IMG/VR virus record: IMGVR_UViG_3300006147_000008
Location: 19,905-83,904 of that record
Source of the DNA: a virus
Taxonomy: Duplodnaviria; Heunggongvirae; Uroviricota; Caudoviricetes
Reading direction: 5' to 3' (one strand)
DNA: 64,000 nucleotides
Shown: piece after piece, positions 2,745 to 42,748 of the stretch
How positions within the stretch are numbered: position 1 is the first letter of the stretch
How the letters are laid out: the number at the start of each line of letters is the position of its first letter
Translations under genes and position numbers: made by a program
The notes under the pieces: model-generated
What the model saw: only the letters and a program-made list of their open reading frames with translations
Database searches by the model: none
What the model was told of the DNA's origin: nothing

Positions 2745-2793
2745 AGTTACACCTCTTTATCAAAAAGTAGTTTCATTCAGACTTTTAGCTTAT

Positions 2794-3645: not shown

Positions 3646-3651
3646 TGGTAA

Positions 3652-3990
3652 TCACTTCCTTTCCGTGCGTTGCTGCTCTGCAAGCTGATTATTAACGTAG
3701 TCACAGACCTCGCAGTATTCCCGAATAGCGTGAGATAGTTTTTCCTGTTTATCCCTTGGGAGAGTTTCGGCGGTCTTGCCCAAGAGCATCGTCATGTGGT
3801 CAAGAGGGACGGTCATATCCCCCGTAAGTGTAGACAAAGTAGTTTTCGGAAACCACTTGTCATGCGGTTCATTCATCCACCTGTGTACCCATTCCTCCCG
3901 CTCAGGGTTGATGGGAAAACCCATCAACCCCAGCAAGGTAGTTTCAAATAGCGGCTGAGGCATGGTTTGAAGGTACTGAAATACTGTCAT
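3652..3990 (-). CDS. hypothetical protein
   Basis: 112-aa ORF, tight spacing to neighbours. Confidence 0.45.
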   Translation of the reverse strand: MTVFQYLQTMPQPLFETTLLGLMGFPINPEREEWVHRWMNEPHDKWFPKTTLSTLTGDMTVPLDHMTMLLGKTAETLPRDKQEKLSHAIREYCEVCDYVNNQLAEQQRTERK

Positions 3991-22881: not shown

Positions 22882-23617
22882 AAGGGTTGAAGGATGGCAT
22901 GGGACTCAACTTGTGGAGATTATGAGCGTGAAGGGTAGCAATTTTGGTATCGGTAGCCTCGTTGCCAGAGGTGCCGGTAAGGATATACCTATCGAGGTCG
23001 TCATAGGAAAAACCCAGATTATCCTCATCGGTTTTCCCACAAAGACCATCAGAGGGCACCTTGTTTACCAGCTCGGCAGGCAGACCCAATGCGTGACCAA
23101 GCTGAATGACCTCATGTACCATCAAATTGGCAAGAGGACTGAAATCGCCAGCACTATCACCAAATTTGGTGGAGTACCCCACAAAATCCTCAGAGCGGTT
23201 GCAGGTGTTGGCGACACGCCCACCATTGGGAAGGGACTGGGCGATAGCGTAGAGTGTGGTCATGCGGATGCGGGCAGGCAGGTTCGTCTTCGTTTGCTCA
23301 CTGACTTCCATCTTGATGCGAACCCTAAACAAAATGGAATCAACAGGGCTTTGGATATTTACCTGATACGACCGGATGCCAAGATGCTCCACGATTCGCT
23401 TACTGTCCTCGATATCAGCCTGCTCTCCACACGGCATAAGGACACCAACAACTCTTTCCTTTCCCAGGGCTTCAACACAGAGGGCGGCGACGACACTCGA
23501 ATCTTTGCCGCCAGAAATGCCGACCACAGCGTCACATTTGGGGCCGTTCATATTGAAGTAGTCACGAACCCACTGGACAATCTCATCCTTGGCCTGTTTA
23601 GGATCAGACAGCATCAA
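22859..23617 (-). CDS. nadE: NH3-dependent NAD+ synthetase
   Basis: GISGGKDSSV PP-loop motif, 252 aa. Confidence 0.85.
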   Translation of the reverse strand: MMLSDPKQAKDEIVQWVRDYFNMNGPKCDAVVGISGGKDSSVVAALCVEALGKERVVGVLMPCGEQADIEDSKRIVEHLGIRSYQVNIQSPVDSILFRVRIKMEVSEQTKTNLPARIRMTTLYAIAQSLPNGGRVANTCNRSEDFVGYSTKFGDSAGDFSPLANLMVHEVIQLGHALGLPAELVNKVPSDGLCGKTDEDNLGFSYDDLDRYILTGTSGNEATDTKIATLHAHNLHKLSPMPSFNPYDEYCHV

Positions 23618-25149
23618 AACTCACCTCCATGAAGATTTTTGCGTACCTCGTCCAAGGTGAAAACCTTGAGCATCTGGCCGTTTTTGAACACAACTCTCAG
23701 CTCGTTATCTTCCTGCGCCTGTTCCCAGGTAAGGCCGTCCATGTAACAATAGTTGCCGCTGGGAAGGCTCCTGGTGACACGGCAACACCCACGCTGGGAC
23801 TTTTTGAAATTGCCGCTGTCGGTCTTGGGGTTTTTGTAAATCATGATAGGATTGCCGTTATAATCCTCAGCATAGGTAGCCTTGACAGCAATACCGAAGG
23901 TATCACGGGTATAGGGTGCATAAGCCTTGCTGTCGCCGTCTGTTGTCTCCAGACACTGCATGGAGAAGGAACCGACACCCAAAGAGACGTTGTTGATAGC
24001 AAACCCACGCTCCATAAGAATCTGGTAGATCGCCTTGCAGCGCTGCGGAGTAATGCTGTCGCCATAGAGTGCCTTAACGTGCGGGTCAAGAACCTTGTAG
24101 CCCTTGCTGTTCACGGTGCCGCCGAAGATATCCCACAACTTGAATACGGTCTTGGTTACAACCTCTACGGGGTCGCCGCTATCTCCACGAATAGCAAGGC
24201 ACCCATCATGTGCCAGAACGTCGTCCTTGATCTGAGGGAGAATGTTGTCTACCAGGTTCCAGTAGTCATAGCTGTCACTGACCATAGAGAAGTTCTGGTG
24301 CGGGTAAACCTCTTTCAACAGACGCTTGATGTGTGTTACCTCATCACCGTCCACAGCGTAGTTGGAACACATGACACTATGCTCAGTGGACAGAGCACCA
24401 TAAGCCACAGGTTCATTCTCAACACGGCAGGCATAATTCTTTTCCAGCCAGAGGATGGCCGGCACAGTGGCCGTATTCAAAAAGCTCAGGCAGAATGCAG
24501 CAGAACTCTTGGTGGCGCTCTCAACACTTTCCTGACCACGCATAGAAAAGTCGCCCAGGAGCTTTGCCCGCACCACGCTGTCGTCGCAGGTGATATCAGC
24601 AAACTCGTTGACAATCTGCCGATAACGGTATCCCACCTCAGCTGAGATCTGAGTGTGCCACATGGAGCAGGACAGCATAGTTTCAATGCTGTTGACCAAC
24701 CAGACAAAGTGGGGGTTGGTATTCGAGATTTCGATTTGCGGGACATGGATGTCGGTGCGAGTACCCTCCGGCACAGCACGAATCATAAGGGGCAGGTAGC
24801 CCAACTCGTGAAGCGCTTTCACACGACCATAGCCAACACCAACTGTGCCAATGGTACAGCCCAGAATCCGAACGTACTCTTTCATAACCTCGCCGAGAGG
24901 ACGGTTGAAAAAGTAGGTGTTGAACGCCTCAATCAGGTATTCCTGAATAAACGCCTGCAAACCAAACATCGTGATCTTATTCACGTCAGGCAGGCGGGTC
25001 ATACGGGGCGTGTAGTAGGATACCATTTTGGTCAGCGTTTCAGGATACTGCTCCGCGTGCGCTGTCTTATAGAAGTCCAGGCACAGCAAAGGATTGTATG
25101 AAATCATTGTTTGATACCCTCTTTCAGTCAATGATGGAGATTTTTTCAT
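23614..25149 (-). CDS. nicotinamide phosphoribosyltransferase family (Nampt/NadV, or NARP1 Namat-like)
   Basis: 511 aa with Nampt-family sequence; overlaps upstream prs-like gene by 26 nt. Confidence 0.8.
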   Translation of the reverse strand: MKKSPSLTERGYQTMISYNPLLCLDFYKTAHAEQYPETLTKMVSYYTPRMTRLPDVNKITMFGLQAFIQEYLIEAFNTYFFNRPLGEVMKEYVRILGCTIGTVGVGYGRVKALHELGYLPLMIRAVPEGTRTDIHVPQIEISNTNPHFVWLVNSIETMLSCSMWHTQISAEVGYRYRQIVNEFADITCDDSVVRAKLLGDFSMRGQESVESATKSSAAFCLSFLNTATVPAILWLEKNYACRVENEPVAYGALSTEHSVMCSNYAVDGDEVTHIKRLLKEVYPHQNFSMVSDSYDYWNLVDNILPQIKDDVLAHDGCLAIRGDSGDPVEVVTKTVFKLWDIFGGTVNSKGYKVLDPHVKALYGDSITPQRCKAIYQILMERGFAINNVSLGVGSFSMQCLETTDGDSKAYAPYTRDTFGIAVKATYAEDYNGNPIMIYKNPKTDSGNFKKSQRGCCRVTRSLPSGNYCYMDGLTWEQAQEDNELRVVFKNGQMLKVFTLDEVRKNLHGGEF

Positions 25150-30552: not shown

Positions 30553-30670
30553 AAAATGTTCCTCCTTTAGTCACATGAGACGCCAATGTATTCCAGAACA
30601 CGGCGCATACCCAGCCCATGTTCTTCCCACGGCCTCATGCAGTAATCCCAAAGTTTGGGGTGGGTAATTT

Positions 30671-31504
30671 TCAGACGTTGGAAACGGTTTGGAGCCTTTT
30701 CCAAATGAGCGCCAAAGGCACAAAAGACACAGCCTGTACGATGCTCTCCTGTTGTTGTCCACCCCCCCCGTTAGTTCTGACGATATCGCCATAGACAGAT
30801 GCGTAAGGAATCTGATAGGTATACAGGTACTCAAGTACATCGCTTTCAGTCCAGAAGGACATGGGCTGAGAACTGGGATTTTTCCCGGAGAAAGCGTTAC
30901 AGCCCTGGTGTAGCCACGTACTGCGACGTAATCTGCTTTCTTCCGCCATGGTTGCGATGATGGGGTGCCGACCTGTCTCCTTTTTATACTTCTTCATGGG
31001 CCGCTTTTTCATGATATTGCAGCATCGAGCAGAAACCTTAAAGGGGGCGTCCAGCAGATAGCACCACTTTTCACAGTTGAACTCTGAAGGAGTACCATTG
31101 CTCCGCATAATCTCTCCGTGAAGCTCTTTCCACCGAAAAGAGCCAGGCTTGTGCCCATATTCCACAGTGTCGGCCACTCGTTTAGAAACAACTGGGTAGC
31201 CATACCGCTCAATGATTTTGCGGAAATTCATCTCTGGACGAACAACAGTGACATTTTCACAGCTTCTGGCAAACTGCCTAACCTCTGGGAACTCCAGCCC
31301 TGTGTCTGAAAACACTGCCGGCACATCAGGGTAGATGCGCCGTACAATGTCAAGGAGCACCGTAGAATCCTTGCCCCCAGAAAAAGCCACGTAAACTTGG
31401 CCGTCGTAGTGCTGATACCACTCAATGATCCGAGCGGTCGTAATTTGGATTTTGCGTTGAAGTGGAAGCCTCTGTAGCTCTTCCAGCTGTTCCCTACTAT
31501 GCAA
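30671..31504 (-). CDS. PP-loop ATP pyrophosphatase (PAPS reductase / TtcA-like)
   Basis: VAFSGGKDSTVLLD PP-loop; Cys cluster CEKWC...CC; TTG start with RBS; contains in-frame C8 tract at about 30756. Confidence 0.6.
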   Translation of the reverse strand: MHSREQLEELQRLPLQRKIQITTARIIEWYQHYDGQVYVAFSGGKDSTVLLDIVRRIYPDVPAVFSDTGLEFPEVRQFARSCENVTVVRPEMNFRKIIERYGYPVVSKRVADTVEYGHKPGSFRWKELHGEIMRSNGTPSEFNCEKWCYLLDAPFKVSARCCNIMKKRPMKKYKKETGRHPIIATMAEESRLRRSTWLHQGCNAFSGKNPSSQPMSFWTESDVLEYLYTYQIPYASVYGDIVRTNGGGGQQQESIVQAVSFVPLALIWKRLQTVSNV

Positions 31505-31607
31505 ATCTCATACCTCCGGGACGTGGCCCACCTCCATCGCCTCCTCCGCTGATAAAATAGAGGAGGACGAGGAGGGCCACCAGAATGAGTGTGACGCCGC
31601 CCATAGC

Positions 31608-32081
31608 TTACTCCGTGGCTTCAGCAATAGGCGTCTCTGCACAGTCAGGGGCCGGCAGAGCAGAGATAACAGACGGCTTGTACTGGCCGGTGCGCTTCAG
31701 CCACTCGTTGATGACACGATTGAAGGTGTTGTCGTTGCCCATGTACTTCTTGAGCATGGCAGTGGTCAGGCCGGCCTCAGCACTGAACACATCTCCGGGC
31801 TGGCACTTCACCACCGTCTTGGTGCCGTCGCTCCAGTACACAATGGTAGCCGGATCGTTGAAAATCACGTTCGTGGGCAGCGGCAAAGGAGCGGATGCGG
31901 GTGGGTTGTTCTTCATGTGCCGCATAGCGGCGTTCCAGCCACGGACAAAAGGATCGTCTGGAACAGCGGCGTTGACTGCGGCAATAGCTGCACCCCCAAA
32001 CAGATCACCCAGAATATCGGGCAGTGTGACAGGCTTCCAAGGTTCAACGACGGGACGAGCAAAAATTTGATTCGGGTTCAT
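31608..32081 (-). CDS. hypothetical protein
   Basis: Start at RBS-preceded MNPNQIFA; 157 aa. Confidence 0.45.
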   Translation of the reverse strand: MNPNQIFARPVVEPWKPVTLPDILGDLFGGAAIAAVNAAVPDDPFVRGWNAAMRHMKNNPPASAPLPLPTNVIFNDPATIVYWSDGTKTVVKCQPGDVFSAEAGLTTAMLKKYMGNDNTFNRVINEWLKRTGQYKPSVISALPAPDCAETPIAEATE

Positions 32082-32100
32082 AATTGATTTCCTCCTATTT

Positions 32101-33033
32101 TTAATGTGCGTGTAGGTCACAATCGTTGATGATTTTGACCCGTTTCCAGATATCCTTACCGAGCATACGTTTGAACTTTTGTTCTGTCTTGCTCGGATTA
32201 TCTGAGTGGTTTATTGCAAACGGAACCATGTGCCAGCGGATCAAAAGAGCAGAGGCCAGCTGGTCATCCATGTGAAGGTCATAGTTACAGGCAAAGCTGT
32301 CGTATGCCCCCACACGCTCGTGATTGTAGAAGTGGGCGATCTCCGTGGGTTCGCCCTTGCTGTTGTGGAAAGCCTTAGTCTGCTCTTTGCCGATATCGTG
32401 GAGCAGAATAGAGCGGCTCAGGACGATATCTTGAGCCATATCACCGTAGTGACTGACGAAGTAGTTGTGGGCTGTCAGCATATGCTGACCAACTGTCAGT
32501 TGATGGTGCGGGTTGTCATGCTCTAAGGCCGAGAGGCGGATCAAGGTCTTGTTGATGATATCCTCGCTCGGCTCTACACCACGCACGATGATGTCATCCC
32601 AGCCCTCCAAATACATGGGAACATCAAATTTGTGGTACATCCGGGTGATTACACTGTCTGGGACACTGCGTTCATGCTCATGATTTTGTTGCAAGCAACG
32701 CTCATAAGAAACAGCCATGAACACACAGGTAATTTGCAAATCCCGGATACGAAGCGCCTGCACACGATCTACGAACTGCTTGCGCTGTTTGTAATTGATG
32801 TTTGTGGCGTCGTAAACCACATTCTTCCCCGCCCGCAAATCAGAGAATACGCGCTCGTGGAGGGTGCTGAACACTAAGGCTTGCTGTGTCTGGTCGTTCT
32901 CATCACCCAGCAACTCACGTCGGATCTCATCACTGGAATGTACCACCGCACCAGGACTGACACTGAGCACATTCCGAGCGAAGGTAGACTTGCCGCTACC
33001 CGGCAGTCCCACCATCATAAAGAAATTTTGCAC
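32101..33033 (-). CDS. polynucleotide kinase (P-loop) fused to HD-domain phosphoesterase (RNA end-healing enzyme)
   Basis: MVGLPGSGKSTFARN Walker A and ...YDATNINYKQRKQ kinase region like T4 Pnk; C-terminal HD motif LLHDIGK..H. Confidence 0.65.
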   Translation of the reverse strand: MQNFFMMVGLPGSGKSTFARNVLSVSPGAVVHSSDEIRRELLGDENDQTQQALVFSTLHERVFSDLRAGKNVVYDATNINYKQRKQFVDRVQALRIRDLQITCVFMAVSYERCLQQNHEHERSVPDSVITRMYHKFDVPMYLEGWDDIIVRGVEPSEDIINKTLIRLSALEHDNPHHQLTVGQHMLTAHNYFVSHYGDMAQDIVLSRSILLHDIGKEQTKAFHNSKGEPTEIAHFYNHERVGAYDSFACNYDLHMDDQLASALLIRWHMVPFAINHSDNPSKTEQKFKRMLGKDIWKRVKIINDCDLHAH

Positions 33034-33045
33034 GTCACTTCCTCC

Positions 33046-33372
33046 TCACCCCAGAAGTACCCCCAAAAGCAGGTACGTTCCGAGTTTTTTGATGTCTGGG
33101 TCATCCGGTGCGTCTGTCTCGCACTTACTTGAATTGCAGTGGAATAGTAGGTGTGCGGCACTCTCGCCATTTACCACCTTGCAAACCTTCATGATGTCGT
33201 CCGGCTCGGTCACATACTCGACCTTCCACTCAAAGCCATCCGACTTCAACTGCGGAATTGCATTGAAGAACTCCGAGGCCATTTTCCCAGCCTTTTCGAG
33301 CATCACTTCCAAAGAGTCTTCATCCTTGATCCCAGAGAGAAACTTGAGGGCGTTGAGCTGGCCGTCATTCAT
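33046..33372 (-). CDS. hypothetical protein
   Basis: Start MNDGQ with GGGAGGTG RBS overlapping NTase stop. Confidence 0.4.
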   Translation of the reverse strand: MNDGQLNALKFLSGIKDEDSLEVMLEKAGKMASEFFNAIPQLKSDGFEWKVEYVTEPDDIMKVCKVVNGESAAHLLFHCNSSKCETDAPDDPDIKKLGTYLLLGVLLG

Positions 33373-34186
33373 CCTTGTCACCTCCCTGGAGTTCTGTCAG
33401 GAAGCACCGCTTGAGAATTTCAACCGTAGCGGTGCGGAGCACTGCGTCAGCGTGCCCGTTGACTTGTACCGGCACCGCATCCATATACTGCTGCTTGTCG
33501 GCTTTCATAAAAGCAATAGTGGCGTTCATCATAGCGCGGGCCTGTTCCAATGGATAGTCACCCCGTTTGACCTCCATCAGAAAATCACGGTCGTTGCTGA
33601 CCAAGCACTCTGCGTAAGGCTCACCAGCCATATAGCGGGTCATAAACTCCCTCATGCGCAAAGCGTGGTGAAGCTGTTTGGGGTCATATCCAAACGCCTC
33701 GATTTTGTCCATAGTGCCCGGATAAGGGTGCTCCATGGCCTTTTGCTTTTCCAAAGCCATACCCATCAGACAGTTCATACCGGCGTAGTTGTTATAGCGG
33801 GCAATCTCCTCACGGGCGTCCAACACCGACTGGAACAAATCGGCGTATTTGGGATTGAGAATGCGATAACGAGTGAACAGGATCTCCACGAAGTTCACAT
33901 TCTGCTTTTTGATGCACTCGAACATCAACCGGATATCCTTGAAGTCAACGTGCTCGTTGTTCTCCATAATGTGAGTGGTACTGATGGGCTTAGAACACAG
34001 CACGAAATCGGAGAAGTTGGGCAACAGGATGGCCTTGGTGTCAATGTCACTGCCCGCATAGTCCAACTCGTAATTCTGGGAGCCTTGGAGAAAAATGCCC
34101 ACCCATTCCCGCCCAGTGGCCCGCACCGCATCGAGGTGTTGATGGATGCGGGCCATGATCTTGTTTTTCTTCTCTGCTACGTTCAT
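33365..34186 (-). CDS. minimal nucleotidyltransferase (Pol-beta superfamily)
   Basis: GSQNYELDYAGSDIDTKAIL = GS-x10-DxD NTase signature. Confidence 0.55.
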   Translation of the reverse strand: MNVAEKKNKIMARIHQHLDAVRATGREWVGIFLQGSQNYELDYAGSDIDTKAILLPNFSDFVLCSKPISTTHIMENNEHVDFKDIRLMFECIKKQNVNFVEILFTRYRILNPKYADLFQSVLDAREEIARYNNYAGMNCLMGMALEKQKAMEHPYPGTMDKIEAFGYDPKQLHHALRMREFMTRYMAGEPYAECLVSNDRDFLMEVKRGDYPLEQARAMMNATIAFMKADKQQYMDAVPVQVNGHADAVLRTATVEILKRCFLTELQGGDKDE

Positions 34187-34199
34187 CCTGCGCCTCCTT

Positions 34200-34340
34200 A
34201 GATGGGTTCGGGCAGGTTGGGGTTGTACCGGCCAACATACTTGCCGTCCTCAAAGATCAGCCGGTAGCCATCGGGCAGTTCCAGGTAGTTGCGGTCGTCC
34301 CCACAGGGGATTTTCTTCATGCCCTCAATGCAGACGTTCA
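34200..34340 (-). CDS. small hypothetical protein (47 aa)
   Basis: ATG-initiated MNVCIEGMKKIPCGDDRNYLELPDGYRLIFEDGKYVGRYNPNLPEPI between NTase and ligase. Confidence 0.25.
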
Positions 34341-35849
34341 TCCCTCATCTCCTCCTCTCTCAATTTCTTGGGCTTCCTCCATATCAGGTGCGGCGGCGGT
34401 GTCCTTAATCAGCCCCTCCAGTACCTTGAAATAGAAGTTTTTATGCTTGTAAGCAGTGAACTTGGGGCGGTTGACGATCCGACAGACAACACCTTCGCGG
34501 ATGTGGGACTTGCCCACAGGATCAGGGCCGTCGTAAAACTGTTCTGCCACAGACTTTACATACTCGCCAGCGTTCACAGCATGGGGAGATCCCACATTGT
34601 CGGAAAGCTGAACCATGTCGGGAATGAAGCCGCGCCAGAACAGCGGCACATACTTGACACCCATCTGTTCACAGCGATAGCGCATAAAGTCGGGTGAATA
34701 CTCCACCACATCACCGTCCTCATTGGTCATGGTCATACGGTAGACATAGAGGTCGGACTTGGGGCAGTCCACAGGATTAAGCGGTTGATTCACGAAGTCG
34801 GAAACTTCAATCTCCGGCCCGCCGTCTGTGGATACTTTACCGGGGCCGAAGTGGATAGCATCAGCCATCTTCTTGCCAGTAGGATCACAACCATAACTAA
34901 ATACGGTCATCTTGCCATACTGCTTGGCAAACTCCTTGTCATTCACCTTGGCATTACTACCAGGAGACATGATAGGTGTTCCGTCGTTGGTGAAGCCCAC
35001 CACCTCGTAGTAGACCGTCTCGCCCTTGCGGAGCTTCCCTTCAAAAACCTTGGCGTGCTGCTCACGGAAAGCATTGCTACCGTAGTAGCCTCCATTCTCA
35101 AAGTCATCCAGTACCACGCGGCGAGTGCCAGTCACATAGCCCCAGTCGTACACCGGCGTCCGCTTGATCCGGTTGCGAAGCCAAAGCGGAGTATGCTTGC
35201 CCTCGGAGAAAAACTTCCCCATGCGACTTTGGTACTTGTACCCTTGGAGAACAGGAAGGTAGCCGGTACGCTGAGAAGTACCGTGCATTTTCAGTGTGAT
35301 CTCCACCAAATCGCCCGGACGGAAAGCAGAGAGGTTGTAGGCCAGCTGCTCGGTATCGGCGTGCTCCTGGAACAGCGGGGAGATAGGGTCAGAGCGTTTA
35401 CGAACATGGTTGCCCTTATCCCCGCCGCCATATCTCTGAGATTTCCGCTTGGGGATATACTTTTCACAGATGGTCACACCGTTCAGCACGGTGATGGTGT
35501 CGCCCTCGGAGAGCTTGGAGACATCGGTAAACCCGTCCAAGCAGGACAGCGGCATGAACAGCCCGTCGCTCTGTTCACCACGGAGCTTCAGTGCCTTGAT
35601 ATTCCGCTTCTCAGGGTCGAGATATCCACCTGCGGGGTTGCCATTCTCATCCTTCCGCCGCAAAAGGTCGTGCTTCTGGGAAAACTCAAGACCGAGCCTG
35701 CCGTCCACTGGGAAATAAACACCCAGCTGGTCAGGCTGCGTCCCCAGATCCACAATTACGGTGTTGCCAAAACACTCGCCACAGAGAAGTCGGTCGGCGT
35801 TGCTGTGCTTCCGCAGATTGCGTATCCGAGTAACATACGCACAGTACAT
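34338..35849 (-). CDS. RNA ligase (Rnl2-like KxHGxN motif) with N-terminal tRNA-binding (Myf/EMAP-like OB) domain
   Basis: N-term ...HSNADRLLCGECFG..VIVDLG...LRGEQSDGLFMPLSCL matches tRNA_bind domain; ITLKMHGTSQR = nucleotidyltransferase motif I as in T4 Rnl2 KIHGTN. Confidence 0.6.
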   Translation of the reverse strand: MYCAYVTRIRNLRKHSNADRLLCGECFGNTVIVDLGTQPDQLGVYFPVDGRLGLEFSQKHDLLRRKDENGNPAGGYLDPEKRNIKALKLRGEQSDGLFMPLSCLDGFTDVSKLSEGDTITVLNGVTICEKYIPKRKSQRYGGGDKGNHVRKRSDPISPLFQEHADTEQLAYNLSAFRPGDLVEITLKMHGTSQRTGYLPVLQGYKYQSRMGKFFSEGKHTPLWLRNRIKRTPVYDWGYVTGTRRVVLDDFENGGYYGSNAFREQHAKVFEGKLRKGETVYYEVVGFTNDGTPIMSPGSNAKVNDKEFAKQYGKMTVFSYGCDPTGKKMADAIHFGPGKVSTDGGPEIEVSDFVNQPLNPVDCPKSDLYVYRMTMTNEDGDVVEYSPDFMRYRCEQMGVKYVPLFWRGFIPDMVQLSDNVGSPHAVNAGEYVKSVAEQFYDGPDPVGKSHIREGVVCRIVNRPKFTAYKHKNFYFKVLEGLIKDTAAAPDMEEAQEIERGGDEG

Positions 35850-35908
35850 TGTTTATCACTCCTTCAAGAGATTTTGTTGCACCAAAAGCAAAAAAGGTAC
35901 AAAAAAAA

Positions 35909-37066
35909 TTAGGGATACATAGTTTTCAACCGATGTACAGCCTCAGCGATAGCCTGGGCCGTATCCACCATGTCGTTTGCCGTATTGTCATACCCCAGTG
36001 AGATACGGACTGTTGACGCTGCGTCTTCATCTGACAGCCCAATTCCTTTTAGAACATGGGACGGTACAGAGTCGGATGCGCTGCAAGCAGAGCCGGCAGA
36101 AAGATAAATTTCCTTTTGATCCAGCAAAAGAAGCAGTGCTTCACTGTTCACACCTGGAATTGTTATGCTGATGATGTTATGGGTTCGCAAATCGGCGGCG
36201 TTCTGCCGATACTCTCCAGGCATTACCTTATCCAGCTCTTTCAACAGAACATATTCCTGACTGTTCCACTTTTGAATTTGCCGAGGAAGCCGATGAATGA
36301 TAATCTCAGCAGCTTTGCCAAGACCTACGATGCCGGGCACATTGTATGTTCCCGCTCTCATGCCGTGCTCCTGTCCGCCACCACCGATTAGCGCCCTCTT
36401 GGAAACTCCATTGCGTACATAGAGCACTCCAACACCAGGAGGTGCGCCGAACTTATGCCCGGACATCGAGAGGAAATCCATACCACACTTCTTAACGTCG
36501 ATGGGAATGTGGCCCGCCGCCTGCACAGCATCCACATGGAAAGACAATCTATTCTTTTTACAAAGCATTGCAATTTCCTCAATGGGATTGATCGTGCCAA
36601 GCTCGTTGTTTACCCACATCACAGACACAGCTTGATAACAGCTGGAATCAAGGAGGTGTCTTAGATCGTCCATATCCACACTTCCGTCTGACAGGTTCTT
36701 CACATAGGTGACTTCATGTGCCCACTCTTCCAGTGGATGAGGCACGGAATGATGTTCAAGTCTGGTTGTGATAACTCGCTCACCCATAACATATCGGGCA
36801 AATGTGTTGTTGGACTCCGTACCACCGGAGGTAAAGAAAATCTCCGATGTATCAGCGTTGATCATTTTGGCAACCTGTTCACGAGCGTTCTCTATGGCCT
36901 GCGATGCGTTCACGCCCTGCGTGTGAATACTGCTGGCGTTACCTACATGATCCGGCTGAAACCAAGGAAGCATGGCTTCCAAAACCTCTGGGAATACGGC
37001 TGTGGTCGCTGCATGGTCGAGATAAATCACTGGTATCACCTCTTTCTGAAAAAGAGGCTCAGACAA
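35909..37066 (-). CDS. cysteine desulfurase (class V aminotransferase, NifS/IscS-like)
   Basis: PLP-lysine motif SMSGHKFGAPPGVGVLYV; 385 aa. Confidence 0.85.
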   Translation of the reverse strand: MSEPLFQKEVIPVIYLDHAATTAVFPEVLEAMLPWFQPDHVGNASSIHTQGVNASQAIENAREQVAKMINADTSEIFFTSGGTESNNTFARYVMGERVITTRLEHHSVPHPLEEWAHEVTYVKNLSDGSVDMDDLRHLLDSSCYQAVSVMWVNNELGTINPIEEIAMLCKKNRLSFHVDAVQAAGHIPIDVKKCGMDFLSMSGHKFGAPPGVGVLYVRNGVSKRALIGGGGQEHGMRAGTYNVPGIVGLGKAAEIIIHRLPRQIQKWNSQEYVLLKELDKVMPGEYRQNAADLRTHNIISITIPGVNSEALLLLLDQKEIYLSAGSACSASDSVPSHVLKGIGLSDEDAASTVRISLGYDNTANDMVDTAQAIAEAVHRLKTMYP

Positions 37067-37134
37067 GATATCCGTGGGTATTGGAAAATTCGCCTGAGCC
37101 TCCTTTGAGAGATTTTATTGCTTGCTATTCGGTT

Positions 37135-38688
37135 TTAAGAGAAGCGCAGAGCATCCTCGACGGGCTGATAGCGATCCACATTGATGGCTTCCAGCAAACA
37201 CTCGTAGGGGTCGAGCTTGCCGCTCATAACCATCTTGGCGATGTTCACAGAGAAACCACTGACCAAGGCAACGCCCATATCGTTCTCCTTGACGGGGATG
37301 GTGCCCGTGCGAGAGGCCACATTCCAGAACACCAACCGAGGCATCTTGTAGCCCGCTGCCTCATACCGCTTGGCAATCTCCTTGAACAAGTTGGCGTTGG
37401 GACGGCCAGAAGAGTAGGAAGACCAGCCGGTGCCCCACACCGTACCCGCCGTCGTGCAGGAGTCAAACTCCATATCGGAGATGATGAGGATATTGGTAGG
37501 CAGCTCATCCTGCTCCATATGGTTGGCCTTGGCCGTCTCCAGAATCAGGTCGAAAACCGCCTCCACATTGGTGTTGGCACCGGCGTGGTGATCGTGGGTG
37601 ATGCGCAGCTTCTCATAGAGGTTCTTACCGTTACGCAGGCTGATGAGCTGGGGCCGATCAGAAAAGCTCATATACTGATCCTTGAACTGACCAGAGGAAC
37701 GCTCGGCGAAATAGATCGCCAAGGCGTTCGCCACCTCCAAGGGGCGGGCAGTGCTGCCGGGCAGGTTCACCCATTCCATGCTCCCACTGTCATCCATGAC
37801 CACCATCGTGTTACCACATCCACTCACGGTATCGGGCAGGTTGCTCCACAGCGCCTCCAGCGTGTCGTCCACGTTATACGCACTGCGATACTTGTTGACG
37901 ATCTCATGCGGGAAAAGAGCGCCAGCATTGATGTGGCTCTCACCCTTCTTCACGCTTTCCAAGAAAGCGCGGCGGCGATCCTCGTCATGGCGGAGGAAAG
38001 CCTTGTTGTACACCAGATTGGCACGGGAGGGGACACGGGGGTACTCGATCTCGTCCCACTGCTGGGCGGACATCTGCTGCTCCACGACCTTGAGGTAGTT
38101 GCAGAGGATAGCCAGCGTGGACTGGTATTCACTCTCGGTCATGTGCAGTCCCTTCCGCATGGTCTGGCCGTAGCTTCTCGTCCGCTTGGAAGATGTCTTG
38201 CAGCGGGGCATCCACTTGGCGAGAAGGGATACGGGCTTCTTCGCCATACGGTTTTCTGTGTCCTCCATGAGCTGCTGGCGCACCAGGCTGATCACGTCCT
38301 CCTTGAGGGGCGTATCCAGTAGGCACCACAGGTCGTCCCAACGGCCATATTCTGGCACCAGCGGGATGATGGGCTTGATATACTGCGGCATGGTTTTCGC
38401 CATGTCAAGCAACACAGCCCGGAACAGCCGCCGCTCACCCAGACCGCCACGCACATCACGTGCGTAAAACAGCCATTTCATAGCCGTCAGCTTGTCATCG
38501 AAGAACGCCTTGGAGAAACGCTTGGCAATCTCCGTCTCCGGCGTTTTCCGTAGGGAGGCCACGGCAAAGCTCAGATCCAACAAATTCTTTCCCGTGGTGC
38601 GGTAGCCCACTGCGCCGTTCTCGGTGATAGAAACGTTGTGGTTGTCCCCGTTCAGCGTGTCCTTCATGCTGTTCATAAAGTCACCCAT
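37135..38688 (-). CDS. vWA-domain protein with large N-terminal domain (DUF2828-like; possible TROVE/Ro60-like RNA-binding protein)
   Basis: C-terminal MIDAS TMVVMDDSGSMEW (DxSxS) vWA; 517 aa; first gene downstream of tRNA-like array. Confidence 0.55.
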   Translation of the reverse strand: MGDFMNSMKDTLNGDNHNVSITENGAVGYRTTGKNLLDLSFAVASLRKTPETEIAKRFSKAFFDDKLTAMKWLFYARDVRGGLGERRLFRAVLLDMAKTMPQYIKPIIPLVPEYGRWDDLWCLLDTPLKEDVISLVRQQLMEDTENRMAKKPVSLLAKWMPRCKTSSKRTRSYGQTMRKGLHMTESEYQSTLAILCNYLKVVEQQMSAQQWDEIEYPRVPSRANLVYNKAFLRHDEDRRRAFLESVKKGESHINAGALFPHEIVNKYRSAYNVDDTLEALWSNLPDTVSGCGNTMVVMDDSGSMEWVNLPGSTARPLEVANALAIYFAERSSGQFKDQYMSFSDRPQLISLRNGKNLYEKLRITHDHHAGANTNVEAVFDLILETAKANHMEQDELPTNILIISDMEFDSCTTAGTVWGTGWSSYSSGRPNANLFKEIAKRYEAAGYKMPRLVFWNVASRTGTIPVKENDMGVALVSGFSVNIAKMVMSGKLDPYECLLEAINVDRYQPVEDALRFS

Positions 38689-38784
38689 TTTCTCTTACCT
38701 CCTTGATTTTGAGATACTCGGAACACATAGGGATTTTTGTTGTTCGTGTTCAGAGATGTACCCGTCTTTCCGGGTTGTCTAAGG

Positions 38785-38907
38785 TACGGCGGGTAGGATT
38801 TGAACCTACGAATGGCAGCTTGGCTTCCTTTTTACATTGCTGTTAGTGAAACTGGGGTGTTCCACATTTTATAGGGCTGCTGTGTTAAACCACTTCACCA
38901 CCGCCGT
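38785..38907 (-). ncRNA. tRNA-like RNA A (about 123 nt): canonical arms plus about 56-nt insert between anticodon-stem strands
   Basis: 7-bp acceptor ACGGCGG/CCGCCGT, D-arm GGTG..CACA, T-arm GTAGG-TTCAAAT-CCTAC; GCAGC...GCTGC encloses an insert with hairpin GTGGAAC-N6-GTTTCAC and ACAGCAA box. Confidence 0.55.
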
Positions 38908-38912
38908 GTAGG

Positions 38913-39030
38913 TGCCAGGGGTTGGATTTGAACCAACGACCTTCGGCTCCTGGCCGACGCTCTATCCAGATAAACTTGCTGTTCACGCCTCTTAAAAGAC
39001 GCACGTTTTTTTTGACTGAGCTACCCTGAC
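38913..39030 (-). ncRNA. tRNA-like RNA B (about 118 nt): about 44-nt insert in D-loop
   Basis: Acceptor GTCAGGG/CCCTGGC, TAGCTCAGTC...TGGATAGAGC D-arm split by insert (hairpin CGTCTT-TTAA-GAGGCG + ACAGCAA), T-arm GTTGG-TTCAAAT-CCAAC; anticodon loop non-canonical. Confidence 0.55.
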
Positions 39031-39036
39031 ATATGT

Positions 39037-39156
39037 TGCGGCAGGCAGGACTCGAACCTACAGTGTAGCGGTTCCCATTAGCATACCTTGCTGTCAGTGA
39101 AACCAGACGTTTCACATTTTGCATTACCGCCGTGTCTACCATTCCACCACTGCCGC
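39037..39156 (-). ncRNA. tRNA-like RNA C (about 120 nt): about 53-nt insert in anticodon region
   Basis: Acceptor GCGGCAG/CTGCCGC, D-arm GGTGGAATGGTAGACAC, stem GCGGT/ACCGC around insert (GTGAAAC-GTCTG-GTTTCAC hairpin + ACAGCAA), T-arm GTAGG-TTCGAGT-CCTGC. Confidence 0.55.
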
Positions 39157-39280
39157 ATAAATGCTCGTCTTTCCAAGCTGCCATCGGTTCTCCACTTTTC
39201 GTTGTCTGAACCGAAAACTTGGCCCACGCTGGTTCAAATTCTATCTGGAGAGAATGGAACCAGAAACTAAATACTCCTTG

Positions 39281-39397
39281 TGCCAGGGGTGGGACTCGAA
39301 CCCACGACCACGGGATTAAAAAGTCCTTTTGAAAATTGCTGTGCGCGTTTCCTTGAATACGCATTGATACGTGCTCTATCCGCTGAGCTACCCTGGC
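39281..39397 (-). ncRNA. tRNA-like RNA D (about 117 nt): insert after a canonical D-arm
   Basis: Acceptor GCCAGGG/CCCTGGC, D-arm GCTC-AGCGGATA-GAGC, T-arm GTGGG-TTCGAGT-CCCAC; insert with hairpin TGCGT..ACGCG + CACAGCAA. Confidence 0.55.
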
Positions 39398-39985
39398 TTA
39401 TCATATGTGTGGGTGAGGATTTCCACCTCACAAAGCGTCTTCTACCGTTCGTGTGCGCACACTCTGGGCGGTTCTCACGCCTGAACCACTTGCGTCTACA
39501 TATTCCGCCACCACACATATAATCCTGGCTCTCACAGGTGGGAGCGGTACGTTCTCCCAGATGTTCCGATTTGCACGGTCACTACACTTATTTTACGTCC
39601 GTTGCTGATCACCATTAGACGGCGTTCTCTGTACCAGAGCAATCGCATTGTGCGAACGCATTTTGTTTCCCCAAATTTACGGATGATTTGCTGTTAGCGT
39701 CCATTGTTATCATTTTTCAAAAATCGCACTGAAAGCGGTGAATGTGTTGCTACTCAGGATTGGATTAGGGCTTGTCTCGTGCTTTATTCATTGCAGATCC
39801 TCCTTAGCTGCTTCCCTGAAAATTCCGCACTTATGTGGGCGGCTCACATTTTGAGATCACATTGGGGCAACCGCCCCGCACATTTTCGCAGCCGATTTAC
39901 ATTTTTCAAAGTAGGGCTTAAACGGTCTGGTCACGTGCTCTATTCATGGCACGAACCTCCTTTCTAAGACTCTTATGACGGCTTT

Positions 39986-40100
39986 AGGGGAGCTGCGGAG
40001 TTGAACCGCAAGCAAAAGATTTCCATTCTTTTTTTTGGTAAGATTGCTGTAAGTGTCCGCCGTTGATTACACTTTTATGTGCTGCCACCGGACGCTCCCC
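39986..40100 (-). ncRNA. tRNA-like RNA F (about 115 nt): D region replaced by structured insert; candidate anticodon GGA
   Basis: Acceptor GGGGAGC/GCTCCCC, T-arm TGCGG-TTCAACT-CCGCA, anticodon arm AAAGA-ATGGAAA-TCTTT; insert contains TTACAGCAAT box. Confidence 0.4.
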
Positions 40101-40176
40101 GTATTGCCCGTCTTTCCAGGCTGTCAGTGGTCTTTCCCACCGTCAGAAAGGGGGTCGCCGCCCACCACAGCGGCGA

Positions 40177-40267
40177 TGGCGAAGGGAGCGGGACTCGAAC
40201 CCACACGTCCTTGCGGGCTACTGCTGGTTTAGCAAACCAGTGCCTTACCAGTTAGGCTTATCCCTCC
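40177..40267 (-). tRNA. tRNA-Ser (anticodon GCU), type II with long variable arm, encoded CCA
   Basis: Acceptor GGAGGGA/TCCCTTC, anticodon stem CTGGT/ACCAG with loop TTGCTAA, 19-nt variable arm, T-arm GTGGG-TTCGAGT-CCCGC, 3' GCCA; promoter-like ACAGCAAT box 68 nt upstream (about 40335-40346). Confidence 0.7.
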
Positions 40268-40499
40268 ATGTGCAGCCTGGGCCGCAACGAGACGCATTAA
40301 ACGTGACGAATTAGCAGTTCGTTGTTTTTTTGATTGCTGTTAGCGTCTCACTACTCACATCGTCAGGCTGTGTTCCAACCCGGCGATTGCTCGGCTCATG
40401 CCGGCGATCCGTCCACGCAGAGAGTCTATCGTCTGCTGTATCTCCTCCTTGTCGTGGGAGACAGGCACACTCTTCTTTCCGAATGCCATAGCGCCCTCC

Positions 40500-41399
40500 T
40501 CAGTTCATGCCGTCGATGGAGACGATGGACGTTCCACCAGACACCTTGGGCATCTGCCCGTTCCACTGCTCATACTTGATCTTCTCAATCAGCTCAGGAG
40601 TGAGAGAGGCGGCAATCACACGGTTGGCCTCCGCCTCCGCTTCAGCGGCAATCCGCACCACATCAGCTTCGGCGTTCGCCTTAACAACGGCTGTCTCGGC
40701 TTGGATCTCGGCGACTTCCTTTTCCTTGTTGGCCTGAATCTTGGCGGTCTGTGCCTCAATGTTTGCCAGCTCCAGCTCCTGCTGGGCTGTGACTTTCTTC
40801 TGAATTGCCGCCGCCGTCTCAGCGTCCACGGAAATGTCTGTAAAGTTCACGGTGTCAATGATGATGCCGTATCCGTCGAACTTCTCTTTGAGGTAGGTGT
40901 CCAGCTCGGTATTGATGGCGGTACGCTGATCGCCGAAGATGTCCGTAACGGGGTAGTTGGCACTGACCTCCTGCGTCCAAGCGATAATCTTGGGCTTGAT
41001 GAACGTATCCTTGATTTCCTCGCCAGACTTGCCCTTAAAGGTAACAAATGTCTGTGCTACTCGTGCCTCGTCAAACCGATAAGAGAACTCCAGGTTGACA
41101 CGAACCGTCTTGCCGTCTGAGGTGGGAACGTTGAAGCTCTCGTCACTGGAGGAGTCACCCTTATCATCCGCCGTCAGGTAGGACTGCTCGATGCCGATGG
41201 AGTAGGTTGTGACCTTCTTGGTGGGCGCTACCAGGTGCCAGCCCTGGGTCAGCACCTCGCCGTCCACGCCGCCGTTCATGTTGTACACCACACCCACATA
41301 GCCTGCCGGCACGCGGCTGGTGCAGAGCAGCGCAAGGATCACCACGCCAAAGATGATGACCGCCAAAGCGATTGCGCCAACAAAACCCTTTTTCTTCAT
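40500..41399 (-). CDS. SPFH/band-7 (prohibitin/HflK-like) membrane protein
   Basis: N-terminal TM, SPFH core, long coiled-coil Ala/Glu-rich region. Confidence 0.8.
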   Translation of the reverse strand: MKKKGFVGAIALAVIIFGVVILALLCTSRVPAGYVGVVYNMNGGVDGEVLTQGWHLVAPTKKVTTYSIGIEQSYLTADDKGDSSSDESFNVPTSDGKTVRVNLEFSYRFDEARVAQTFVTFKGKSGEEIKDTFIKPKIIAWTQEVSANYPVTDIFGDQRTAINTELDTYLKEKFDGYGIIIDTVNFTDISVDAETAAAIQKKVTAQQELELANIEAQTAKIQANKEKEVAEIQAETAVVKANAEADVVRIAAEAEAEANRVIAASLTPELIEKIKYEQWNGQMPKVSGGTSIVSIDGMN

Positions 41400-41691: not shown

Positions 41692-42627
41692 TTAGTAGAA
41701 TAACCGCTTGTAAAGCGTGTAGTCGTTCATACGCTGCCGGTATATGCGCTGCACATCCGTCTTGGCCTTTGGATTGACAAAATCCTCACAGAACACCTTG
41801 GAGGCAAAGGCCAGGTCGTCCAAATTGAACTTTGTGCTCTCGCATTCCAGCATATACGCCCGGTAGAATATTCCCGACAACCGCACCACCTCAAACCGAA
41901 GTGCTCCGATGTGATCCAGTATCTTGTCCATACGGCTCAAACTGCGCCGCATATGGAAGACGGTCATTTGAGATGAAGCAAGTGTCCGTATCAGGTTGGG
42001 CGACTCAGCGTAGCGCATGAAAGTAAGACCCTTGGACTGCTTGTAGTAGCCGTCCGCGTCCCGCAGGCGGGCCAGGATTTCGGTCACAAAACTTGGCATG
42101 GAAATCATCTGACCGTTCAGCATCACACCTTCATTTGTTACGGCGTCCTTCGGGAGATTGATGATTTCCTCCTCTGTCAAGCCAAACCAGGCCAGATAAA
42201 GGATCGAAACTGGCACATCAAAAACCATATCGTCCGCACGCGCCGCAGCGTCTATGGTGCTCTGGATCATCTCACGCAACATGGACAAATTCTTGTAGTA
42301 GCGGATGCGTCCATCTTCCGACTTGATACTCAGCTCCTCCGGCTTGATGGAAAAGATGATCTGCTCATGTTCCTCTGGCATAACCTGATGGGAAATCATA
42401 TACCGGACGTAGTGCATAACGACTTTCCTATCGTTGAGAAAGGTGCCGGTCTTTTGCACCAGGAGGGAACTGAACAGCTTGATGTACTCCTCTCTGGTGT
42501 ATCCCTCGTCCAGCGTCTTACCGAAGCTCTCCTCGAACTTCAAGACCTTGTTCCATGTCCTTTGGAACTGTGCGGCCTGCGGGTATGAGGAACTGCCCTC
42601 CGGGTCGTCGAAATATTTCTTGCGGTT
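41692..42627 (-). CDS. hypothetical protein (312 aa)
   Basis: Start MNRKKYF placed downstream of leader box at 42651-42680 with GGAGAAACGGAGG RBS. Confidence 0.45.
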   Translation of the reverse strand, partial: NRKKYFDDPEGSSSYPQAAQFQRTWNKVLKFEESFGKTLDEGYTREEYIKLFSSLLVQKTGTFLNDRKVVMHYVRYMISHQVMPEEHEQIIFSIKPEELSIKSEDGRIRYYKNLSMLREMIQSTIDAAARADDMVFDVPVSILYLAWFGLTEEEIINLPKDAVTNEGVMLNGQMISMPSFVTEILARLRDADGYYKQSKGLTFMRYAESPNLIRTLASSQMTVFHMRRSLSRMDKILDHIGALRFEVVRLSGIFYRAYMLECESTKFNLDDLAFASKVFCEDFVNPKAKTDVQRIYRQRMNDYTLYKRLFY

Positions 42628-42748
42628 CATGGCGTCCTCCGTTTCTCCACAAAAGATTTTGTGTAATGCTATCTTAGCACTTCTTGACGGGTTTGTCAAT
42701 AGGGTGAAACAAAATTGCAGAGATTTTTTTTGGAGGTCGCCTTGGCTA

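Follow-up and report, generated by a model that had tools for sequence, protein, structure and literature searches.

In bacteria and phages, Ro60 genes adjoin genes for tRNA-like Y RNAs, as in the Salmonella rsr-yrlBA-rtcBA operon (Chen et al. 2014, PMC4201824), and in Thermus phage phiLo, Y-like RNAs encoded upstream of the Ro60 gene bind Ro60 and form ternary complexes with host PNPase (PMC12135203). Phage RNA-repair systems combine, in a described gene syntax, a ligase, RlaP, a kinase/phosphatase, and a Ro/TROVE protein (Iyer et al. 2021, PMC7824862). Here we analyze a locus in a 64,000-nt stretch of phage DNA (the window: positions 19,905 to 83,904 of IMG/VR virus record IMGVR_UViG_3300006147_000008) that an earlier note, made from the sequence alone, had singled out. 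A gene for a Ro60-like protein of the DUF2828 family is preceded by an array of tRNA-shaped RNAs with an internal hairpin-CAGCAA module, and followed by genes for enzymes of RNA end healing and sealing. The enzyme kit is an already known type of RNA-repair system. For the family of nonpermuted, module-bearing, tRNA-shaped RNAs and its strict linkage to DUF2828, we found no earlier description, and the family is absent from Rfam 15. We lean, by no great measure, toward reading the block as a phage counter-defense operon that would repair RNA, most likely tRNA, cut by host ribonucleases, and that would be organized around a Ro60-like ribonucleoprotein (RNP).

The locus shares with bacterial Ro60 (Rsr)-YrlA a protein consisting of a helical-repeat ring and a vWA/MIDAS domain, encoded beside noncoding RNAs (ncRNAs) of ~110 to 120 nt with tRNA-like D and T arms; an operon link to an RNA ligase; and a presumed protein-binding element at the place of the anticodon arm. 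It differs in that the phage protein is DUF2828/DUF7788, not TROVE, and is alike at the fold level only; its RNAs are not permuted (their ends form the acceptor stem), carry the hairpin and CAGCAA, have no Rfam YrlA match, often keep a real anticodon stem-loop, and come in arrays of up to five; and its ligase is an ATP-dependent Rnl5 enzyme rather than RtcB. As in phiLo, the ncRNA genes lie upstream of the protein gene, but those of phiLo encode Y RNAs of the classical stem-bulge kind, which carry a CGAA motif. The mycobacteriophage protein annotated as "Ro-like RNA binding protein" belongs to the same family (33% identity over the full length); in Mycobacterium phage Halena it is accompanied by a single, permuted, YrlA-like RNA located downstream of the gene. 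In neither Halena nor phiLo does a tRNA body carry the hairpin-CAGCAA module, and neither has a kinase/nucleotidyltransferase/ligase block next to the gene.

In 2016, Burroughs and Aravind reportedly described modular RNA-repair systems in which Y RNAs go with TROVE proteins and "a novel tRNA-like molecule" goes with SPFH proteins. The kit described here follows the same syntax as theirs and that of the jumbo phages; in our locus, cofactors of both the TROVE type and the SPFH type flank the array, and the tRNA-like RNAs track the Ro-like gene, not the SPFH gene. As an SPFH gene flanks the array, their tRNA-like molecule may be the same RNA with a different partner assigned. The phosphoesterase is of the HD type here, and of the HAD, 2H, or cRec type in jumbo-phage systems. 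T4 Pnk with Rnl1/Rnl2, which act on PrrC-cleaved tRNA-Lys, and Pnkp/Hen1 follow the same healing-and-sealing logic, namely 5' phosphorylation, clearance of the 2',3'-cyclic or 3'-phosphate, and ATP-dependent RNA ligation, with a homologous kinase domain. They differ from our locus in the phosphoesterase (HAD in T4 and calcineurin type in Pnkp) and in the ligase, which is Rnl5 here, not Rnl1 or the Pnkp ligase domain; Hen1 methyltransferase is lacking here, and a nucleotidyltransferase, the Ro-like RNP, and sulfur enzymes are added. Fungal and plant Trl1 likewise shares the kinase, cyclic phosphodiesterase, and ligase chemistries, which in our locus lie beside tRNA-shaped RNAs with internal extra sequence. 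The domains here are separate and unrelated to those of Trl1 (HD for 2H and Rnl5 for an Rnl1-like ligase), and we see no splicing endonuclease, no fixed 37/38 intron position, and no bulge-helix-bulge motif.

The tRNA-like array reported in the earlier note (38760-40355, minus strand) is real: ARAGORN sees only an ordinary tRNA-Ser(GCU) with a long variable arm (40177-40267, minus; Rfam tRNA, 52.2 bits), the Rfam tRNA model adds four RNAs, and a covariance model built of the 41-nt module (R1) adds a fifth. The five module-bearing RNAs, all on the minus strand, are 115 to 123 nt long. RNAs 2 to 5 score above the Rfam tRNA gathering threshold, and the D and T arms are canonical (39 to 50 bits for the full tRNA model), but an uninterrupted cloverleaf is lacking: all five carry an insert of 45 to 57 nt in the anticodon arm or D loop. 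RNA 1 (39986-40100; R1, 24.1 bits, E = 2.6e-4, absent from the seed) combines an acceptor stem (GGGGAGC/GCUCCCC), a T arm, the hairpin-CAGCAA module, and a small stem-loop (AAGA-AUGGAAA-UCUU); its body family (UGGGAGC/GAGGAGC) recurs in related loci. RNA 2 (39281-39397; Rfam tRNA, 46.4 bits with a 57-nt insertion; R1, 24.6 bits, E = 1.8e-4, absent from the seed) carries the module in the anticodon stem, where it separates positions 28 and 29 and precedes GGA-CUUUUUAA-UCC; its anticodon loop has 8 nt, compared with 7 nt and UUU or GUU in relatives. In RNA 3 (39037-39156; Rfam tRNA, 39.3 bits with a 53-nt insertion; R1, 31.0 bits) and RNA 5 (38785-38907; Rfam tRNA, 49.7 bits with a 52-nt insertion; R1, 35.8 bits) the module lies within the anticodon loop, the 3' part of which reads AAUGGGA (UGG with G37, Pro-like) and AAGCCAA (GCC, Gly-like), respectively. 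RNA 4 (38913-39030; Rfam tRNA, 44.3 bits with a 52-nt D-loop insertion; R1, 31.9 bits) has the module in its D loop and an anticodon arm with a loop of just 5 nt (UCGGC-CAGGA-GCCGA). The start codon of the DUF2828 gene (38688) lies 97 nt past RNA 5, the last of the series. When introns were allowed, ARAGORN returned mutually inconsistent introns and anticodons, including two "stop" anticodons, and these predictions were not used as evidence.

The inserts share one layout: an A-rich lead, a 7-bp hairpin, a 1- to 3-nt spacer, CAGCAA, and a U-rich tail. In the 64-kb window, R1 gave five matches at E ≤ 2.6e-4 and two weak copies, all within the array. The hairpin is supported by covariation: all seven pairs vary on both sides, 97.5% of alignment cells pair, the covariation score was reached by 0 of 500 shuffles, and no slid register came near it, with the caveat that the seed was selected for having the hairpin and that the second alignment was fitted to the model. 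An additional closing helix formed by the A-rich and U-rich flanks was dropped, as it is not conserved between Oscillospiraceae-type and Lachnospiraceae-type copies. Nor does the ACAGCAA motif look like a promoter: inspection by eye found no sigma-70-like spacing on either strand, and promoter-like sites are fewer than in shuffles. We find it simplest to regard the module RNAs as tRNA mimics and functional analogues of YrlA, with a putative protein-binding element in the anticodon-arm region.

Linkage of the module to DUF2828 is strict. Among 100 DUF2828-seeded loci (948 kb, both strands), all 243 R1 matches fall upstream of DUF2828 on the same strand, 70 to 2040 nt away (positions 1962-3929 of loci in which DUF2828 starts at ~4001). 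Counting with an independent script gave 287 module RNAs upstream and none elsewhere, compared with 173 ordinary tRNAs upstream and 102 downstream. We also examined 27 SPFH-seeded loci: module RNAs occur in 7 of the 8 that have DUF2828 and in none of the 19 that do not. Because SPFH loci without DUF2828 carry no module, the partner of the module is DUF2828 and not the neighboring SPFH. An unbiased scan of IMG/VR DNA for the module pattern pointed the same way, with a same-strand DUF2828 gene accompanying 12 of the 18 evaluable strict module RNAs (154 to 371 nt downstream in ten of the 12; protein identities down to 37%). The other 6 of 18 had no DUF2828 gene within the sequence stretch examined, and Pfam searches of the ORFs (open reading frames) downstream of such RNAs were uninformative. 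The conserved core is the pair of Ro-like protein and module RNA. One such pair, in a Lachnospiraceae metagenome-assembled genome (DKVL01000045.1, 437-8336; locus L129), is flanked by genes for an RluA-type pseudouridine synthase, a cytidylate-kinase-like protein, a sigma factor, and an ABC ATPase, with no ligase within 4 kb; it may be a chromosomal, nonphage version of the RNA-protein pair.

Across related loci the module is always 5' of the anticodon position, at one of three sites: in the D loop, within the anticodon stem at 28/29, or at the 5' edge of the anticodon loop (31/32). An intact 7-nt anticodon stem-loop follows the module in 68 of 196 unique RNAs, a count whose filter required U33; these loops have C32 in 60, A37 in 67, and A38 in 62 cases, and their anticodons are mostly GUU, GCA, UUU, UCU, GUC, and UAU. 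In another 68, the loop-inserted class, the module stands in for the 5' portion of the loop, the last five nucleotides read Gly (GCC/UCC plus AA) or Pro (NGG plus G37), and the position-33 equivalent is U in 18. Some relatives of ~90 nt have the module in place of the anticodon arm. Within one body family, AGGGCUAUAGCUCAG... (AGGGCUA...; 17 unique RNAs, in loci such as L113, L121, L126-L129, L140, L147, L151, and L157-L159), which is otherwise >90% conserved, variation is greatest at the anticodon, where seven triplets occur (GAU, CUU, UCU, CCU, UAU, GUC, and GUU), and the discriminator base partly tracks them, being A with Ile and G with Asp, Asn, and Arg. CCA is encoded by 17% of module RNAs, whereas ordinary tRNAs of these loci encode it in 76% of cases. 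We found no module-free tRNA with the same body.

The array holds further small elements, all on the minus strand. Four hairpins of the form NNNNG-GAAAGA-CNNNN (40126-40141, 40106-40121, 39163-39178, and 38760-38775) lie just before tRNA-like RNAs or the DUF2828 gene, with one other match in 64 kb; their stems vary compensatorily (GCCUG/CGGGC, GCUUG/CGAGC, and ACCCG/CGGGU), and they could be processing or protein-binding sites. Two micro-ORFs preceded by Shine-Dalgarno sequences encode MNRARDQTV* (39918-39947) and MNKARDKP* (39765-39791). This peptide family (M[NS][RK][ATI]RD[KQ][PT]...) recurs in the arrays of L001, L002, L009, L027, and L091, among others; the anticodons commonest on module RNAs correspond to its Asn, Lys, Arg, and Asp codons, and the micro-ORFs could therefore act as a leader-peptide sensor. 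The two weak copies of the hairpin-CAGCAA module (39680-39717 and 40326-40355; R1 E, ~0.3) are degenerate and lie outside any recognizable tRNA body; the second, with the SPFH gene on one side and tRNA-Ser on the other, lies within a 7-bp pairing (GAGACGC...GCGUCUC). By eye, a possible additional tRNA-like element can be seen at ~39440-39555 (GUGUGG...CCACAC, with a T-arm-like GUGAGG-UGGAAAU-CCUCAC); this stretch lacks a CAGCAA motif, and Rfam did not pick it up.

The Ro-like protein (37135-38688, minus) consists of N-terminal helical repeats (DUF2828) and a C-terminal vWA domain with a MIDAS (DUF7788; motif DDSGSM), both recognized by Pfam. Its AlphaFold2 (AF2) model reaches the Ro60 fold, a HEAT-like helical-repeat ring followed by vWA, and Foldseek concurs; the D, S, S, T, and D columns of the MIDAS are invariant in 40 DUF2828 homologues. 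The proposal that this vWA protein is Ro60-like thus holds at the level of fold and fails at the level of sequence, where Pfam returns DUF2828 and DUF7788 only, with no TROVE. The DUF2828 family is large (>8000 matches) and occurs in at least 711 INPHARED phage records, including FelixO1-like and KVP40-like phages, Listeria and Staphylococcus phages, and mycobacteriophages. SEA-PHAGES annotators call it "Ro-like RNA binding protein"; elsewhere it is often "hypothetical" or "RNA-binding," and literature searches on DUF2828 and on phage tRNA introns with Ro60 yielded nothing relevant.

The DUF2828 gene adjoins a phage tRNA array in Bacillus phage Nate, in KVP40, and in a FelixO1-like phage. In Halena (MK494100.1, locus L250), an unannotated YrlA-like RNA (6544-6652; RF02553, 39.8 bits, below the gathering score) sits in a 360-nt gap directly after the DUF2828 gene. 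This RNA and the RNA-protein linkage described above strengthen the parallel with rsr and Y RNAs first proposed for the window. Unannotated gaps of 340 to 600 nt also lie between the tRNA array and the DUF2828 gene, or within the array, in Nate (L252, 4365-4974) and phage VpaE1 (L251, 6743-7086, 7253-7685, and 8242-8829); R1 matches there are weak (E, 0.07 to 3), and the gaps might hold other partner RNAs.

The ligase (34338-35849, minus; phrog_968, 1e-62; motif I KMHGTS) matches only RNA ligase families and folds, as first claimed. It matches Pfam RNA_ligase (7e-6) and the PHA02142 OB domain (6e-4, amino acids [aa] 5-101), no DNA-ligase family scored better than the RNA ligase families, and the phage has its own, separate ATP-dependent DNA ligase (21589-22881, minus). 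The best NCBIfam model is TIGR02306, RNA_lig_DRB0094 (6.6e-9); because the score of 35.1 bits is far under the curated cutoff of 151, we regard the ligase as a separate phage subfamily (phrog_968) and not as an equivalog. Its AF2 model (pLDDT, 72) matches Naegleria gruberi NgrRnl over the full length (2e-14), with NgrRnl residues 20-129 aligning to aa 16-134; T4 Rnl2 (7e-6), Trypanosoma brucei REL1, and archaeal Rnl3 are further fold matches, and the OB part also resembles the tRNA-binding domains of Trbp111, MetRS-C, and PheRS-beta. Thus, the combination of a tRNA-binding-type OB with a ligase was described correctly, but NgrRnl and TIGR02306 make Rnl5-type a better label than Rnl2-type. The fusion, which had been called unusual, is in fact the defining Rnl5 layout: Deinococcus radiodurans DraRnl (DRB0094) and NgrRnl have the same N-terminal OB and C-terminal nucleotidyltransferase domain with the motif I lysine. 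The phage ligase is ~160 aa longer than these, with two inserts that are of low confidence in the AF2 model (approximately residues 134-169 and 329-355).

The kinase-HD protein (32101-33033, minus; AAA_33, 1e-21; phrog_505, "polynucleotide kinase," 1e-22) has both a P-loop (GLPGSGKST) and an HD motif (LLHDIGK). Its kinase half is nearest to the kinase domain of Clostridium thermocellum Pnkp (2e-11 by single sequence, 2.9e-26 by family profile), followed among Protein Data Bank (PDB) matches of the profile by the tRNA kinase PSTK, Capnocytophaga Pnkp1 (4e-12), T4 Pnk (2.5e-11), and mammalian PNKP. For the HD half, the Pfam HD match of the window copy is weak (0.002), but 29 of 33 family members match HD (best, 3.5e-8), the H, HD, H, and D columns of HD phosphohydrolases are invariant across the family, and the family profile aligns with the HD-bearing part of class II A/CCA-adding enzymes (1.3e-8); the protein itself matches NCBIfam tRNA_CCA_actino at 1.8e-6. 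In 2004, Yakunin et al. reportedly found the HD domain of the Escherichia coli CCA-adding enzyme to be a 2',3'-cyclic phosphodiesterase and phosphatase. These searches bear out the proposed fusion of a polynucleotide-kinase-clade 5'-kinase (CthPnkp, Pnkp1, and T4 Pnk) to an HD phosphoesterase: they gave Pnk-type kinases and CCA-type HD domains, not unrelated nucleotide-metabolism families. The architecture is common rather than unusual, with 9045 relatives among 1.84 billion cluster representatives. At E ≤ 1e-30 there are at least 868, and almost every one of the top 150 has ~300 aa and aligns end to end.

A minimal Pol-beta nucleotidyltransferase had been predicted at 33365-34186 (minus), and its signature, GSQNYELDYAGSDIDTK (GS...DID), and phrog_388 match ("nucleotidyltransferase," 2.9e-15) bear this out. 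The window copy had no Pfam match at E ≤ 5 and no PDB relative by single sequence or family profile, but Pfam RlaP (PF10127) is matched by 15 of 40 homologues that are 53 to 84% identical to it (best, 5.4e-6). We therefore call it a divergent RlaP-like enzyme, its membership in the family being unproven. RlaP enzymes extend damaged RNA 3' ends by one or two nucleotides (preprint, PMC12776372).

Two sulfur enzymes belong to the block. The class V pyridoxal phosphate-dependent cysteine desulfurase (35909-37066, minus; Aminotran_5, 4.6e-82) matches NifS (1e-111) and DndA (5e-91) in NCBIfam and SspA (1e-116) and DndA (8e-114) in PADLOC, and is, as judged from these models, of the generic IscS/NifS/DndA/SspA type. 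The PAPS-reductase-family PP-loop enzyme (30671-31504, minus; PAPS_reduct, 1.8e-18; phrog_424, 1.6e-41), the last gene of the block, is closest to BrxP, CysH, and SspD models (PADLOC: BrxP, 8e-18; SspD, 7e-6; DndC, 8e-4), and Pfam, NCBIfam, and PADLOC place it outside the known tRNA-thiolase families (TtcA, 6e-4, against a cutoff of 272 bits); it is 81 to 88% identical at the same position in the related loci L001 and L007. The earlier note had read the two enzymes as a possible capacity for tRNA thiolation. Pfam and PADLOC searches showed no DndB/D/E or SspB/C homologue in the block.

The minus strand carries every credible gene between 30.6 and 41.4 kb of the window. In order of transcription, the block comprises SPFH, the array, DUF2828, desulfurase, ligase, nucleotidyltransferase, a 111-aa ORF (orf111), kinase-HD, a 170-aa ORF (orf170), and the PAPS reductase family enzyme. 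All genes named in the earlier note are present on the minus strand at the coordinates given there and their domain calls are reproduced, but its list omitted the SPFH gene and the two small ORFs. The three conditions under which the note would have had its finding refuted were tested, and none held. In close relatives the order DUF2828-desulfurase-ligase-nucleotidyltransferase-kinase is strictly conserved and the gene junctions are short or overlapping; in more distant phages the ligase is co-oriented with DUF2828 and lies ~8 to 10 kb downstream of it. Scanning found no convincing intrinsic terminator between block genes, which is compatible with cotranscription but does not prove it.

How such a counter-defense operon might work can be sketched from homology and linkage, on which its functional steps rest. 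The kinase-HD enzyme would heal RNA ends by 5' phosphorylation and phosphoesterase activity, the RlaP-like nucleotidyltransferase would restore nucleotides, and the Rnl5-type ligase, with its tRNA-binding-type OB, would seal the ends. The module would be the binding site of the Ro-like ring, so that the RNAs act as Y RNAs (YrlA) do for bacterial Ro60; the tRNA-like body, with the anticodon stem-loop where present, would recruit tRNA-handling enzymes or mimic their substrates, and the RNP would thereby bring damaged RNA ends together with the repair enzymes. As the weakest step, the desulfurase and the PAPS-reductase-like enzyme may restore a sulfur modification.

Several observations weigh against this scheme. 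At the sequence level, neither phmmer nor a 40-sequence profile of DUF2828 retrieved any Ro60 in PDB at E ≤ 10. Rfam searches at E ≤ 1 over the array (38600-40500) found no ribozyme, YrlA (RF02553), or other family besides tRNA. The topology is the reverse of that of YrlA: the ends of module RNAs pair as a 7-bp acceptor stem and the module is internal. A pure scaffold role would not account for the canonical anticodon loops that about a third of the RNAs keep intact. The Rnl5 ligases characterized to date, such as DraRnl and NgrRnl, favor nicks in duplex RNA over anticodon loops. Finally, many loci with DUF2828 and module RNAs, some of them apparently chromosomal, have no ligase within 4 kb, and the RNP may for this reason work independently of the repair enzymes.

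That last point leads to an alternative, in which the Ro-like protein and its RNAs are functionally apart from the ligase kit, for example as an RYPER-like tether of host PNPase or another exonuclease to structured RNAs, as demonstrated for D. radiodurans Rsr and suggested for phiLo, and adjacency reflects modular colocation in an "RNA metabolism" region. It would account for the more distant DUF2828 and module loci, most of which have no ligase, nucleotidyltransferase, or kinase within 4 kb; for the L129 locus, with its pseudouridine synthase, sigma factor, and ABC ATPase neighbors; for the DUF2828 genes of FelixO1-like phages, Nate, and KVP40, which lie by a tRNA array without an adjacent ligase; and it has a precedent in the phiLo Ro60-Yrl complexes with host PNPase (PMC12135203). 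Mere colocation fits poorly, however, with the strict gene order and short or overlapping junctions of the close relatives, with the co-oriented ligase that distant phages keep 8 to 10 kb downstream, and with the recurrent partnership of Ro/TROVE with RNA ligases in bacteria (rsr-yrlBA-rtcBA) and jumbo phages (PMC7824862). We consider functional separation unlikely, if deserving of serious weight.

A bolder proposal gives the variable anticodons a function of their own. Module RNAs would then be a widespread, undescribed class of Ro partner in Clostridia and their phages, with a fast-evolving, functional anticodon stem-loop, and would serve either as baits or sensors for host anticodon nucleases, held by the ring and resealed by the kit, or as the first protein-spliced tRNA precursors of bacteria or phages. 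We regard this as a possible but doubtful outcome.

Splicing can also be considered by itself: the modules would be protein-dependent introns of phage tRNA precursors, cut by an endonuclease, healed by kinase-HD, and sealed by Rnl5 in the manner of Trl1, with the Ro-like protein recognizing or chaperoning the intron. The bodies do score as tRNA above Rfam gathering, and a canonical 7-nt loop is kept 3' of the module in the 68 unique RNAs mentioned above. Removal of a 28/29 insert gives a perfect 5-bp anticodon stem with a nick in duplex, the type of substrate favored by Rnl5/Rnl2 ligases, so that splicing is attractive for this class; removal of the D-loop insert from 38913-39030 restores a standard D loop, AGUUGGAUA. 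The Gly or Pro reading of the loop-inserted class, and the discriminator of one body family, which mostly follows the anticodon, also fit. Against this, Pfam, NCBIfam, and PADLOC searches found no endonuclease candidate or nuclease domain in the block; the insertion site is variable (D loop, 28/29, or 31/32), insert boundaries are not conserved, and the ARAGORN introns are inconsistent. The loop-inserted class mostly lacks U at the position-33 equivalent, RNA 4 would retain a 5-nt and RNA 2 an 8-nt anticodon loop, and in the ~90-nt relatives the module occupies the place of the anticodon arm. Moreover, no module-free tRNA of the same body was found, CCA is encoded far less often than in ordinary tRNAs, and the module follows DUF2828 even where no ligase is nearby, including in apparently chromosomal loci. 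Taken together, these points make splicing distinctly improbable.

We give almost no credence to the idea that the enzymes process and ligate DNA ends or act on nucleotides, with the sulfur pair carrying out Dnd/Ssp-like phosphorothioation to protect the phage genome: the SspA, DndA, BrxP, SspD, and DndC matches and the ability of T4 Pnk and Rnl2-like ligases to act on DNA ends in vitro are in its favor, but the desulfurase matches are generic for the IscS/NifS type, DndB/D/E and SspB/C were not seen in the block, the ligase matches RNA ligase families and folds only in a phage with a DNA ligase of its own, the kinase is nearest to RNA-repair Pnkp and tRNA kinase PSTK, and tRNA-like RNAs and a Ro-like protein head the block.

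Taken by itself, the enzyme block provides a further well-formed example of phage RNA-repair systems, in which Rnl5-type ligases, kinase-HD enzymes, and RlaP-like nucleotidyltransferases co-occur in abundant phages of gut Clostridia. DUF2828 proteins gain a fold-level Ro60 assignment, and one large DUF2828 lineage gains a candidate RNA ligand: an element of ~41 nt, presented by a tRNA body, in which CAGCAA is invariant and the hairpin covaries. The role of bacterial and phage Ro/Y RNPs becomes directly testable where the RNP adjoins its likely effector enzymes. If the hypervariable anticodons reflect an arms race with tRNA-cleaving defenses, the module RNAs would be a new type of phage counter-defense molecule.

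Of the remaining genes, the SPFH/Band-7 gene (40500-41399, minus; Pfam Band_7, 1.6e-26; phrog_200, 5e-65) opens the block and immediately precedes the RNA array, and homologues with 81 to 86% identity occupy the same position in the closest related phages. A conserved protein is also encoded by orf170 (31608-32120, minus): homologues with 58 to 61% identity lie at the same position in L001 and L007, and it has no family match in Pfam, PHROG, NCBIfam, or PADLOC. By contrast, orf111 (33046-33381, minus), between the nucleotidyltransferase and kinase-HD genes, matches no family, and none of 169 related loci holds a homologue. It fills a gap of ~330 nt between two genes that abut in relatives, and may be a recent insertion or noncoding. 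Outside the block, an ORF at 41692-42699 had no family match in Pfam and NCBIfam searches.

The source of the DNA is a large phage of gut Clostridia. The window covers its replication and nucleotide-metabolism region, with genes for NrdD, a family-A-like DNA polymerase, a primase-helicase, the ATP-dependent DNA ligase, NAMPT, and a large helicase. Megablast with 30600-40500 found no close relative among INPHARED phages; the nearest protein relatives are in IMG/VR sequences of 55 to 170 kb and in assemblies of Oscillospiraceae and other Clostridia. The NAMPT (nicotinamide phosphoribosyltransferase) gene (23614-25149, minus; phrog_448, 6e-153) suggests a counter-measure to NAD+-depleting defenses.

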